Shown: positions 16,337 through 18,071 of the stretch, piece by piece | Position numbering within the stretch: the stretch's first letter is position 1 | How the letters are laid out: each line of letters opens with the position of its first letter | Source of the DNA: Bacteroidia bacterium | GTDB taxonomy: Bacteria; Bacteroidota; Bacteroidia; NS11-12g; UBA955 | Direction of reading: 5' to 3' | Assembly (NCBI GenBank): GCA_044224315.1 | Contig: JBGAKR010000001.1 | Span: 1,298,733-1,362,732 of the forward strand | Length of the DNA stretch: 64,000 nt | Notes under the pieces: generated by a model | The model's input: the letters and a program-made list of their open reading frames with translations, nothing else | Told to the model about the DNA's origin: nothing | The model's database searches: none | Translations under genes and position numbers: made by a program

Positions 16337-16717
16337 TCATTTTTCATATTTTGTAATATTAAAATTAGTTGCTGCGCACGCCCCCACTCTCAACCCGGGG
16401 GGGTTAGGTATTGATTTGTTTAATCTTAACTGTTTCGCACTTTTAATTAGTAAGCATTTAGAAAAAATATTTCTAAAAAACTTTTTTAAAATTCCGTTTC
16501 CTTTCAATTCGTTAATCAGCATAAAATTCTGGGATTCCCTAAATTCTAGTGGATATATAGGTATGTATTTCAAACTATTTATTTCTGAGGCGTTTGAATA
16601 AGGCCTAAGGAAATCAACAATGCAGGGTACTATTACCTTGCGAACCCACATAGATTTCCAAACTTCTGTGGAATATTTTTCTATGATTATTTTGTTAATA
16701 TTAATTTTCATTCCCAA
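16337..16717 (-). CDS. hypothetical 126-aa protein overlapping the end of the Panacea-domain antitoxin (possible third cistron / toxin partner)
   Basis: The ORF overlaps the upstream gene by 17 nt. There is no recognisable motif, and the 3' part reads through a GC hairpin (cgcccccactctcaacccggggggg), so it may be non-coding. Confidence 0.25.
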   Translation of the reverse strand: MGMKININKIIIEKYSTEVWKSMWVRKVIVPCIVDFLRPYSNASEINSLKYIPIYPLEFRESQNFMLINELKGNGILKKFFRNIFSKCLLIKSAKQLRLNKSIPNPPGLRVGACAATNFNITKYEK

Positions 16718-17717
16718 TTCCTTTCAGTTGAAAAGCATAAGAATACGGAATTAGTTCATGATTTTTTACCATTTCTTTCCAACCAGTTTCTTCATGGCTA
16801 AGATTAATAATATCCTGTGTTTTAAGTGGTTTTAATCTGTTTAGTACAGTTTGCAAAGTGCTTAATTCGGGTTCACTAAGATGCAGTGGTTTAAAGGGAT
16901 GCCTCTTTGATGGTTTTAATTGTTCCTTTAGAGTTCCATCACTCTTTTCTTCGGCATTAATTTCTATTATACCGATGTTTGCAAAATGTTCGTAGATTGA
17001 CTGATATCTGTTAGGCACTGGACCCATCTGGATTGCTCGGTAAGGTAAGCCACTGATTGAGTGACATGTGGTTTGGAAATGATAAAAATCGGCATAAAAT
17101 AACAATTTATTTATTTGTGTTTTCCAAGGCATGCAATTCTCAGTAAAAAACTGAATCATTTCTCCAAGTTTTTTTAAATTCGGCTTAGTATAACCATTAA
17201 TTATACCCTCATATTTTGTGCTTAATAGATAATCTTCTGCCTTTTGTTCAAAGCTGTAGGCATAGTTTTGTTTAATGATTTTTTGAATATGCTCTAGGAT
17301 TTTACTTTTTGCTTTGGGCTCTAGGTTATCACTAAGGTCTATTAGTTTCTTAAAATCGTACGGGTTTGCAGCTAATAGAATAAGTTTTGCATTTGATGCA
17401 CTTGGGATTTCGCCGCTTTCGTAGTTGCGATAACCATTTATGCCCAAGCCTAATATTTCCGACATTTTGCTAGCGGGTAGTTCATAATTCTCCCTAATCG
17501 ATTTAATTTCCTCCGGAAAAGGAATATGATGTTTGTCGCGGTACTGATTATATACCTGCTCCATGTTTAGCTCATCCTGGGCTGTGCTTGTAAATTTGCT
17601 ATCTGAATCGGAACAATAGAAATAGTGGAATTCAATTTTGAACTTTTCTCGCCTGAATTCCAGCTCGCGAGGTTCTATTTTGGCAACCATTGTTTTTCCA
17701 GTTATCGGACTATTCAT
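16701..17717 (-). CDS. MqsA-like HTH (XRE) antitoxin fused to a C-terminal Panacea (DUF4065/SocA-like) domain
   Basis: 338 aa. SIRENYELPASKMSEILGLGINGYRNYESGEIPSASNAKLIL parallels the MqsA HTH (GGGVNAFSRYEKGNAQPHPSTIKLL). The N-terminus looks like a degenerate MqsA zinc ribbon (YFYCSDSDS). The C-terminal KLLFYADFYHF...GLPYRAIQMGPVPNRY matches the Panacea-domain hallmark. Confidence 0.7.
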   Translation of the reverse strand: MNSPITGKTMVAKIEPRELEFRREKFKIEFHYFYCSDSDSKFTSTAQDELNMEQVYNQYRDKHHIPFPEEIKSIRENYELPASKMSEILGLGINGYRNYESGEIPSASNAKLILLAANPYDFKKLIDLSDNLEPKAKSKILEHIQKIIKQNYAYSFEQKAEDYLLSTKYEGIINGYTKPNLKKLGEMIQFFTENCMPWKTQINKLLFYADFYHFQTTCHSISGLPYRAIQMGPVPNRYQSIYEHFANIGIIEINAEEKSDGTLKEQLKPSKRHPFKPLHLSEPELSTLQTVLNRLKPLKTQDIINLSHEETGWKEMVKNHELIPYSYAFQLKGIGNEN

Positions 17718-17720
17718 GTT

Positions 17721-18071
17721 TTATTTTTTTAAAGGATATTTCAAAGATTTTTCTGCGGGATGGAATGATATACATATAACTGGAGAGCTCTTGGATCCCA
17801 TACTAATCTTTATATATATTTCAACCCCTTTAACTTTTTTCCCAAAAACCCACATTTCACCTAGGTTATTAAGATTGTCTGTATAAGGTCCTTCTGAGTA
17901 ATCTTCAATAGACAAGCTTTGAATAACTTCAATTCTTTGCTTGCTTGTAAGTTCAAGGTCCAGCAAAGCTTGGGTGTTTTTACTCCTGTCATCACGAAAA
18001 ACGATTTCCCATACCTTCATTTTTTGATGAAAATCATTCAAAAATTGTTTTACCAAGTCATGAGAATTCAT
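17721..18071 (-). CDS. MqsR-family mRNA interferase toxin
   Basis: 116 aa. VIQSLSIEDYSEGPYT...GVEIYIKISMGSKSSPVICISFHPAEK aligns with E. coli MqsR IIGLSESDFYKSMTTY...GQVYLKITVIHDVLIVSFKEK. It ends 3 nt before the antitoxin start. Confidence 0.65.
   Translation of the reverse strand: MNSHDLVKQFLNDFHQKMKVWEIVFRDDRSKNTQALLDLELTSKQRIEVIQSLSIEDYSEGPYTDNLNNLGEMWVFGKKVKGVEIYIKISMGSKSSPVICISFHPAEKSLKYPLKK

Follow-up and report, generated by a model that had tools for sequence, protein, structure and literature searches.

A probable MqsR:PanA toxin-antitoxin module from a diverged Bacteroidota subfamily

Gene organization of the locus

The window, a stretch of 64,000 nucleotides from a Bacteroidia bacterium (contig JBGAKR010000001.1), carries on its minus strand a gene for a 116-aa MqsR-like protein just upstream of a gene for a 338-aa antitoxin, followed by two smaller reading frames, ORF3 and ORF4, and an intrinsic terminator (Table 1). 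The three ORFs listed in the first-pass annotation were all recovered on this strand at the same coordinates, and its pairing of an MqsR-like toxin with an MqsA-like antitoxin was borne out in the domain assignments by profile scans and fold identification.

Table 1. Coordinates of the genes, protein domains and regulatory features at the locus (positions in the window)
Feature	Position	Strand	Remark
Distal operator-like half-palindrome GCACTTTATTGTTG	18148..18161	-	Starts 90 nt upstream of toxin ATG
Proximal operator-like palindrome CAACTTTTTTGTTG	18107..18120	-	Starts 49 nt upstream of toxin ATG
Bacteroidota-type -7 promoter box TATATTTG (TAnnTTTG)	18082..18089	-	Read from sequence
MqsR-fold toxin, predicted endoribonuclease, 116 aa	17721..18071	-	Toxin-first gene order
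Antitoxin, 338 aa	16701..17717	-	
N-terminal MqsA (ZBD-like) domain without zinc site, residues 1-65	17523..17717	-	Aligned to MqsA 1-65
XRE-type helix-turn-helix, residues 68-118	17364..17516	-	Pfam HTH_3, 23.2 bits, cut-off 23
Panacea (DUF4065 / SocA-like) domain, residues 202-314	16776..17114	-	Pfam PF13274
ORF3, orphan reading frame, 124 aa from ATG	16337..16711	-	Towards the 3' end of the transcript
ORF4, 47 aa, hydrophilic N-terminus and C-terminal hydrophobic helix	16204..16347	-	Status uncertain
Bidirectional intrinsic terminator	16172..16198	.	Perfect 11-bp stem, T-run on both strands

The locus is in all likelihood an ordinary type II toxin-antitoxin module of two genes, toxin first, that belongs with the MqsR:PanA pairs. 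The ZBD-HTH-Panacea architecture of its antitoxin is already known, as MqsR:PanA pairs of this type were catalogued in 2022 (PMC8832971) and one was dissected experimentally in 2023 (PMC10440598), and the window pair, a diverged one, belongs to a large Bacteroidota subfamily. A protein-cluster search returned more than 2,600 clusters of ~335 aa that carry both Pfam domains, and 521 genomic matches, spread Bacteroidota-wide over a collection with one genome per species, were confirmed by tblastn; these matches came from an alignment-based scan of the species-representative genomes, and a scan with a single-protein query gave none. The toxin gene lies immediately upstream of the antitoxin gene in 75 of 82 related loci, mostly with a gap of 6 nt, compared with 3 nt in the window, and both ORFs of the pair are intact in all related loci examined. 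Within the subfamily the toxin is mostly annotated as 'hypothetical protein'.

The MqsR-like toxin

The 116-aa protein is an MqsR-fold member of the RelE superfamily, since fold identification gave an alpha-beta arrangement of the MqsR/RelE type with MqsR itself nearest, and it would presumably act as an endoribonuclease; mRNA cleavage at GC(U/A) sites, independent of the ribosome, characterizes the MqsR family. At the sequence level the relationship is distant: the protein scored 24.3 bits (E 4.4e-5) against Pfam PF15723 (MqsR), under the gathering score of 26.2, the same profile matched 16 of 30 toxin family members at E <= 0.01, and MqsR structures in the PDB were not found by sequence alone with the toxin family profile.

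Alignment of 30 family members revealed 25 invariant columns, among them those of the basic residues K17, R29, K31, R46 and K88 and that of Y86, which aligned to Tyr81 of E. coli MqsR, a residue essential for catalysis (PMC9636575). Lys56, the second essential catalytic residue of E. coli MqsR (PMC9636575), appears to lack a conserved equivalent in the window toxin, as hhalign placed it opposite E60 in a variable column where the alignment is weak (Prob 5%), so that either the catalytic chemistry may differ or the alignment may be wrong there. Another difference from the E. coli enzyme concerns Lys96, whose place is taken by H104, a His that is invariant in the family.

Domains of the antitoxin

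The Panacea homology proposed in the first-pass annotation is supported by the PF13274 (SocA_Panacea) profile, which matched the C-terminal part of the antitoxin over its full length (1-113 of 113) with an E-value of 1.8e-20 and a score of 74.4 bits (cut-off 25.7). The profile evidence for the MqsA and MqsR assignments was divided: NCBIfam TIGR03830 (MqsA family, CxxCG_CxxCG_HTH) recognized residues 8-118 above its cut-off (64.0 versus 61.8 bits), whereas Pfam PF15731 (MqsA) gave 25.6, under the gathering score of 30, and PF15723 likewise stayed below gathering for the toxin. The antitoxin HTH aligns with the C-terminal domain of MqsA (PDB 3fmy).

The zinc ribbon, earlier described as degenerate, is indeed so, with three of the four Cys ligands replaced relative to E. 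coli MqsA: C3 by Ser, C6 by Thr and C40 by S38, while C37 is kept as C35. Across the family there is no variation at S3 or T6, and at least 90% of members share C35 and S38. Since a single one of the four zinc ligands remains, the N-terminal domain of this Bacteroidota subfamily is almost certainly zinc-free and would fold without the metal.

The antitoxin had also been suspected to be a chimera caught mid-exchange, referring to a recent and possibly transient fusion of MqsA and Panacea parts. Panacea does recombine with many partners (PMC8832971), but this suspicion is contradicted by the stability of the family, in which the full-length architecture recurs in all of the clusters and genome matches given above, and by the identical architecture known in Bacillus (PMC10440598), leaving the recent-fusion reading an almost negligible probability. 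Family members match along the whole linker and both domains, and gaps in their alignment are few. Members are only ~50% identical to the window protein, yet many columns are invariant in both antitoxin halves, Panacea included, which points to an old fusion kept by selection.

Candidate operators and promoter

Of 71 related loci, 64 carry a palindromic site with the family consensus CAACTTTATAGTTG ahead of the toxin gene and 34 carry two, whereas the rest of the sequence of these loci has such sites at 0.012 per 160 nt. Where there is a second palindrome it precedes the proximal one by ~40 nt, and the two take up fixed positions near -60 and -100. In the window, the proximal site differs from the consensus by 2 mismatches and the distal site by 3. 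Their conservation suggests that the two palindromes, ~40 nt apart, are probably operators.

Of the 71 related loci, 50 have the motif TAnnTTTG, known as the Bacteroidota -7 consensus, in the 160 nt that precede the toxin ATG, and in 45 of these 50 the copy nearest the ATG is 21-30 nt away from it. A sigma-70 promoter scan performed no better than on shuffled sequences, the sigma-70 model being not appropriate for Bacteroidota.

This conservation bears on the reading of the module as a decayed, non-functional relic, with the Lys56-type residue lost in the toxin and zinc binding lost in the antitoxin. Consistent with decay, the window copy falls under the Pfam gathering scores for both MqsR and MqsA, and the equivalents of three zinc ligands, of Lys96 and apparently of Lys56 are changed; however, the changes are family-wide and fixed, with S3, T6 and H104 invariant and S38 nearly so. 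Together with ORFs intact in every locus examined and with conserved operators and promoter box, such fixed changes argue for purifying selection on a working variant instead of decay, and a relic is highly improbable.

Proposed mechanism and relation to known systems

The MqsR:PanA system of Bacillus fungorum (Ernits et al. 2023, PNAS, PMC10440598) resembles the window locus in being a gene pair whose antitoxin has the same three-part build, from an MqsA-like N-terminus through an HTH to Panacea at the C-terminus. Its MqsR-like toxin carries the catalytic Tyr Y97, the counterpart of Y86. Compared by published description, the window pair differs in belonging to the Bacteroidota subfamily and in having one of the four Cys ligands left. 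In B. fungorum the ZBD alone and ZBD-HTH neutralize the toxin while Panacea alone and HTH-Panacea fail, and the toxin is no longer toxic once its catalytic Tyr is substituted (PMC10440598). The authors of that work favour Panacea as a sensor and not as a neutralizer of a second toxin, and also report that Panacea directly neutralizes toxins in other PanA proteins (PMC10440598). The MqsR:PanA pair of H. frisingense is toxic, yet its PanA gave no rescue in E. coli (PMC8832971).

By analogy with the B. fungorum truncations of this homologous architecture (PMC10440598), the N-terminal MqsA-like domain of the window antitoxin (residues 1-65) is predicted to be the part that neutralizes the 116-aa toxin, and Panacea would not neutralize MqsR. 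The central HTH (residues 68-118) is predicted to mediate dimerization and operator binding, by which the antitoxin would occupy the two palindromes just upstream of the -7 box and repress the operon. Panacea is probably accessory because a dedicated N-terminal neutralizing domain is present, and following a published hypothesis it would most likely serve as a sensor domain coupling toxin release to a trigger, for example phage infection. ORF3 and ORF4 do not belong to the conserved module; they would occupy the transcript's 3' portion, ahead of the first terminator.

Different from E. coli MqsA (MqsR/MqsA, also YgiU/YgiT; PDB 3HI2, 3GN5 and 3O9X), the window antitoxin has ~220 extra residues including Panacea, and the operator consensus of the subfamily is distinct from that of E. 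coli MqsR/MqsA. Degradation of E. coli MqsA by ClpXP is gated by zinc and oxidation (PMC8808172); as the zinc site is lost in the window antitoxin, this gating cannot operate likewise.

The window locus shares with the PanAT systems (Kurata et al. 2022, PNAS, PMC8832971) a Panacea antitoxin beside a toxin, a pairing conserved across species and a gap of <100 nt, and MqsR-like proteins are the commonest recognized toxin class next to PanA (n = 90) (PMC8832971). In many PanATs Panacea itself binds the toxin, whereas the window antitoxin has a dedicated N-terminal domain with that predicted role. SocAB, a type VI TA system from Caulobacter, also features a Panacea/SocA-like domain, but the window toxin is MqsR-like and not SocB. 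The window antitoxin was not recognized as SocA by NCBIfam SocA_antitoxin (NF047745; 16.2 bits versus a cut-off of 190), and there is no evidence in the window module for a ClpXP-adaptor mechanism as in SocAB.

As one more MqsR:PanA of a catalogued and dissected architecture, the module alone is of little weight, and what modest value it has comes from the very large Bacteroidota subfamily that it represents. The new details, read from sequence comparison, are modest as well and comprise the family-wide loss of zinc ligands, the invariant His in place of Lys96 and the two conserved upstream palindromes. The subfamily offers a useful natural variant, combining an apparently zinc-free MqsA neutralizing domain and this His with a well-defined pair of candidate operators, and could help to reveal what Panacea senses and whether antitoxin turnover can be controlled without the zinc- and oxidation-gated degron of E. 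coli MqsA.

The downstream reading frames

A 126-aa ORF overlapping the antitoxin end by 17 nt, as noted in the first-pass annotation, is present with a TTG start at 16717, and the gene caller chose the ATG form of 124 aa with an overlap of 11 nt. ORF4 is likewise a gene-caller prediction, and its ATG start overlaps ORF3 by 11 nt. The terminator listed in Table 1 is the first convincing one downstream of the antitoxin, and none was found between the antitoxin and position 16198.

Only ORF3 itself was retrieved by an indexed search of 5.8 billion clusters (E <= 10) and by exhaustive phmmer against 1.84 billion representatives; plasmids and phages returned self-matches or noise, and no family was matched in Pfam, NCBIfam, PHROGs or PADLOC. 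No relatives of ORF4 were found in plasmids or phages, nor any of its 61-aa stop-to-stop segment in metagenomes. Neither ORF3 nor ORF4 was detected by tblastn in any of 80 related loci. No third gene is conserved beside the pair in the related loci: what lies downstream differs from locus to locus, and similar proteins were seen there in just two pairs, each from close relatives.

The codon log-odds of ORF3 showed no frame preference and its GC1, GC2 and GC3 values are flat, while AF2 on the single sequence gave an uninformative pLDDT of 39. ORF4 scored 0.29 in its own frame, and the two alternative frames of that strand scored 0.15 and -0.05, over just 47 codons. Most likely ORF3 does not function as a gene, and some room is left for a real orphan gene because its 126-codon stop-free run has p ~0.004 by chance in 31% GC DNA. 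The GC hairpin that ORF3 had been said to read through did not hold up (z = +0.36, with folding equalled or bettered in 121 of 200 shuffles), and the GC patch inside ORF3 is unique in the window. A six-frame Pfam scan of 16150-16760 gave nothing significant that would indicate a decayed gene, and an Rfam scan of 15600-18600 yielded only sub-threshold matches, driven by the terminator hairpin.

These results weigh on the earlier proposal of two toxins sharing one antitoxin, in which the MqsA part would neutralize MqsR and the Panacea part ORF3 or, more plausibly, ORF4. The proposal draws on the overlapping ATG starts of both predicted genes, the lack of a terminator ahead of them, the improbable length of ORF3, the coding-like codon score of ORF4, which is reminiscent of small membrane PanT toxins in passing from a charged N-terminus to a hydrophobic C-terminus (PMC8832971), and the direct toxin neutralization by Panacea in other PanA proteins (PMC10440598). 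However, Panacea is an unlikely neutralizer in PanAs that carry a ZBD (PMC10440598), both frames are without homologues, and ORF3 shows neither a frame-specific codon signal nor a family match. As both are absent from 80 loci in which Panacea is conserved, Panacea function cannot depend on them, and the two-toxin arrangement is very unlikely. A narrower version, the gain in one lineage of two translationally coupled cistrons through the overlaps ATGAAAATTAA and ATGAAAAATGA, with Panacea acting on ORF4, alone or with ORF3, which would be a factor related to the trigger or a small membrane toxin, has a similarly slim chance; if true, it would make the locus a four-gene, two-effector PanA system.

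ORF3 and/or ORF4 might instead be real lineage-specific small genes or cargo remnants, co-transcribed with the pair and playing no part in neutralization. The long stop-free run of ORF3 and the score of ORF4 fit this, as does the free variation of the neighbours downstream of related modules. The region between an RHS gene and a T9SS cargo gene is in addition patchy in composition, its GC varying between 0.28 and 0.58, which suggests repeated acquisition of foreign DNA; no tRNA genes were found in the window in a search for integration sites. The absence of homologues at any level and of a frame signal in ORF3 speaks against such genes, as does the low-confidence AF2 model of ORF3, which is weak evidence for a single sequence, and this reading is unlikely, though a good deal less so than a second toxin. 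The ordinary two-gene MqsR:PanA module remains the preferred reading of the locus. The window recurs unchanged, at 100% identity, in two other assemblies, and all four proteins form singleton 90% clusters.

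Domain architecture of the module

Four ORFs follow one another on the minus strand of the window, namely the toxin, the antitoxin, the proposed third gene ORF3 and the short ORF4, and the first two form a toxin-antitoxin (TA) module that is a fairly diverged MqsR:PanA pair of a known kind. Panacea-domain antitoxins (PanA) were defined by Kurata et al. 2022, with MqsR-like as the most frequent recognised toxin domain adjoining PanA (n = 90) and 343 PanA sequences bearing an HTH domain at the N-terminus (PMC8832971). Ernits et al. 2023 dissected the B. fungorum MqsR:PanA pair, the antitoxin of which is organised as ZBD-HTH-Panacea (ZBD, the MqsA-like N-terminal domain). 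The toxin was neutralised by ZBD alone or ZBD-HTH, not by Panacea alone or HTH-Panacea, substitution of its predicted catalytic Tyr abolished toxicity, and a sensory role was favoured for Panacea in antitoxins of this architecture (PMC10440598). Taken together, these studies show that the architecture seen in the window is already known and experimentally characterised.

Features of the TA module and its surroundings in the window
Feature	Position	Strand	Remark
Toxin ORF, 116 aa	17721-18071	-	
Antitoxin ORF, 338 aa	16701-17717	-	3-nt gap from toxin
ORF3	126 aa from TTG at 16717; 124 aa from ATG at 16711	-	
Antitoxin/ORF3 junction	16701-16711	-	
ORF3/ORF4 junction	16337-16347	-	
ORF4, 47 aa	16204-16347	-	11-nt overlap with ORF3
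Intrinsic terminator, bidirectional	16172-16198	both	perfect 11-bp hairpin; first convincing one 3' of antitoxin
TAnnTTTG-type box	18082-18089	-	TATATTTG
Variant palindrome copy	18107-18120	-	CAACTTTTTTGTTG
Variant palindrome copy	18148-18161	-	GCACTTTATTGTTG; 41 nt from the other copy
63-aa hydrophobic ORF	18179-18370	-	in GC-rich block; no Pfam match
249-aa ORF	18491-19240	-	in GC-rich block; no Pfam match
44-aa ORF	16027-16161	+	
RHS-repeat protein gene, 1553 aa	10983-15644	-	
167-aa ORF	10495-10998	-	
T9SS-sorting-domain protein gene, 1313 aa	20935-24876		
21-nt tandem repeat	20310-20369		GATATCGGATCTCAGATAACG

The MqsR-like toxin

The ORFs and the MqsR, MqsA-like and Panacea domains called in the first-pass annotation were right. 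Profile searches upheld Panacea (Pfam SocA_Panacea, full model, antitoxin residues 202-314, E 1.8e-20) and the MqsA family (NCBIfam TIGR03830, residues 8-118, 64.0 bits, cut-off 61.8), whereas the toxin scored below the gathering score of Pfam MqsR_toxin (E 4.4e-5, 24.3 bits against 26.2). Judged from its AF2 model (pLDDT 89, pTM 0.84), the toxin clearly adopts the MqsR fold, a question settled by the structure match: E. coli MqsR was the clear best solved match, ranked first by Foldseek with a probability of 1.00. The toxin family comprises 332 matches, nearly all unannotated or named 'hypothetical protein', and its profile did not reach the PDB MqsR entries on sequence alone. A precomputed Pfam MqsR match is present in one member only (P0140), though the fold is clearly MqsR, so PF15723 under-detects this Bacteroidota clade of MqsR-fold toxins.

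The alignment of 30 toxin-family members contains 25 invariant columns. The E. coli MqsR sequence, checked against 3HI2 chain B, was aligned to the family with hhalign, which put Y81 opposite Y86 and W67 opposite W74, both invariant, and K56 opposite a variable column occupied by E60 in the window toxin. E. coli MqsR strictly needs two residues, K56 and Y81, for cleavage (PMC9636575); the catalytic Tyr is therefore kept, and the second catalytic residue is uncertain. In contrast to E. coli MqsR, the subfamily has an invariant His (H104) in place of Lys96.

The zinc-ligand-deficient antitoxin

Over residues 1-121 the antitoxin family profile could be aligned with MqsA of E. coli (E 1e-6), and Pfam HTH_3 was barely over its cut-off. 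The degenerate zinc ribbon noticed earlier is real, as the MqsA ligands C3, C6, C37 and C40 align with S3, T6, C35 and S38. Since S3 and T6 are invariant in 28 family members and at least 90% of these members have C35 and S38, the alignment indicates that ligand loss is a fixed trait of the whole family and not decay of the window copy. Zinc-free 'pseudo-ZBD' folds are already known in the antitoxin network (PMC10440598). ClpXP control of E. coli MqsA is gated by zinc and oxidation (PMC8808172), which the predicted zinc-free neutralising domain of the subfamily would be unable to use.

Antitoxin homologues fall into more than 2,600 clusters. The 119 best matches (self excluded) are 319-358 aa long with 47-53% identity and 94-99% coverage, and most bear both PF13274 and PF15731; several already go by the name 'type II TA system antitoxin MqsA family protein' or 'SocA domain-containing protein'. 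The proposal of a chimeric antitoxin caught mid-exchange found no support. A pattern scan in which each species was represented by a single genome confirmed 521 relatives, almost all from Bacteroidota. Of 82 loci compared, made up of 80 related loci and the two assemblies that match the window exactly, 75 have a toxin relative immediately upstream of the antitoxin, usually with a gap of 6 nt. The closest relatives found share 53% (antitoxin) and 67% (toxin) identity.

Candidate operators upstream of the toxin gene

A 14-nt palindrome (consensus CAACTTTATAGTTG) recurs upstream of the toxin gene across the related loci. Allowing at most 3 mismatches, at least one site occurs in 64 of 71 loci and two in 34, against a control density of 0.012 per 160 nt in other parts of these loci. 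The palindromes start at two fixed positions, around -60 and -100 relative to the ATG and thus about 40 nt apart, and a TAnnTTTG box is found upstream in 50 of 71 loci, its last copy 21-30 nt before the ATG in 45 of the 50. We infer that these are candidate operators, as such an arrangement would be expected if a dimeric HTH antitoxin controlled its own operon. Two palindromes are also present in the promoter of E. coli mqsRA, a parallel to the pair in the window. The candidate operator pair is new in this analysis and, together with the predicted zinc-free neutralising domain and the His replacing Lys96, worth recording, with the classification unchanged.

ORF3 and ORF4

A module of two toxins and one antitoxin, with Panacea neutralising the ORF3 product, had been proposed, and is unsupported because ORF3 shows neither homologues, conservation nor a frame-specific codon signal. 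ORF3 retrieved nothing but itself, both from 5.8 billion clusters (E <= 10) and by exhaustive phmmer over 1.84 billion representatives. Neither the 80 related loci nor plasmids gave a match, phages gave only noise, and no family in Pfam, NCBIfam, PHROGs or PADLOC was matched. The genes downstream of related modules are mutually unrelated; among them are an HsdM methylase, an AIPR abortive-infection protein, an RNase H and several kinds of DUF. GC1/GC2/GC3 is flat in ORF3 (0.30/0.32/0.31), compared with 0.41/0.27/0.29 in the toxin and 0.44/0.30/0.32 in the antitoxin. A codon log-odds model that tells the unrelated RHS and 249-aa genes apart from their other frames gave ORF3 0.074 in frame versus 0.070 and 0.091 in the other same-strand frames, lower than every true training gene (minimum 0.111). 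The supposed GC hairpin folded no better than shuffled sequence. The single-sequence AF2 model (pLDDT 39) was uninformative. In favour of ORF3 are its 126 codons without a stop in a 31% GC stretch (p about 0.004 in Markov simulations) and the coupled-looking 11-nt overlap of its ATG start, the gene caller's choice in two independent public assemblies, with the antitoxin. On balance, ORF3 probably does not function as a gene, and it is certainly not a conserved module component.

ORF4 has a hydrophobic C-terminal helix and is more gene-like (0.29 in frame versus 0.15 and -0.05), but has only 47 codons; no relatives appeared in the 80 related loci, plasmids, phages or metagenomes. The start-stop overlaps at the two ORF3 junctions are near-identical (ATGAAAATTAA and ATGAAAAATGA), and both could stem from translational coupling or else from chance in AT-rich DNA. 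The terminator hairpin begins 5 nt beyond the ORF4 stop.

Genomic setting

Some members of the TA family adjoin defence genes. In two related loci (L051:4005-5492 and L061:2989-4476) no more than 2 nt separate the antitoxin stop from the start of a type I restriction-modification methylase (HsdM_N + N6_Mtase), and an AIPR abortive-infection protein lies 126 nt downstream of the antitoxin in a third (L007:4129-5802).

The AT-rich TA module (30-39% GC) is flanked, within a compositionally patchy zone, by the RHS-repeat and T9SS-sorting-domain protein genes, a setting that points to a Bacteroidota genome. The zone between these two genes has the look of a mosaic of DNA pieces acquired separately. 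A GC-rich block (18150-19250, 52-58% GC) separates the module from AT-rich DNA at 19250-19900 (28-32% GC). The N/Q/K/G-rich 44-aa ORF (MSKGTKPADNSANRQNPNKGTNGTNKAY...) is convergent to the TA operon and uses the same bidirectional terminator; its codon score is gene-like (0.30), and the Pfam scan gave no match. The RHS gene starts about 560 nt downstream of this terminator on the strand of the TA operon and is followed, with a 16-nt overlap, by the 167-aa ORF bearing an RHS repeat and a T9SS C-terminal sorting domain; both may constitute a polymorphic-toxin locus whose C-terminus is split or has an alternative version. A stretch that looks non-coding, upstream of the gene for the T9SS cargo, harbours the 21-nt tandem repeat (2.9 copies, 94% matches) and, nearby, looser arrays with a period of 11-12 nt at 20245-20311 and 19908-19956.
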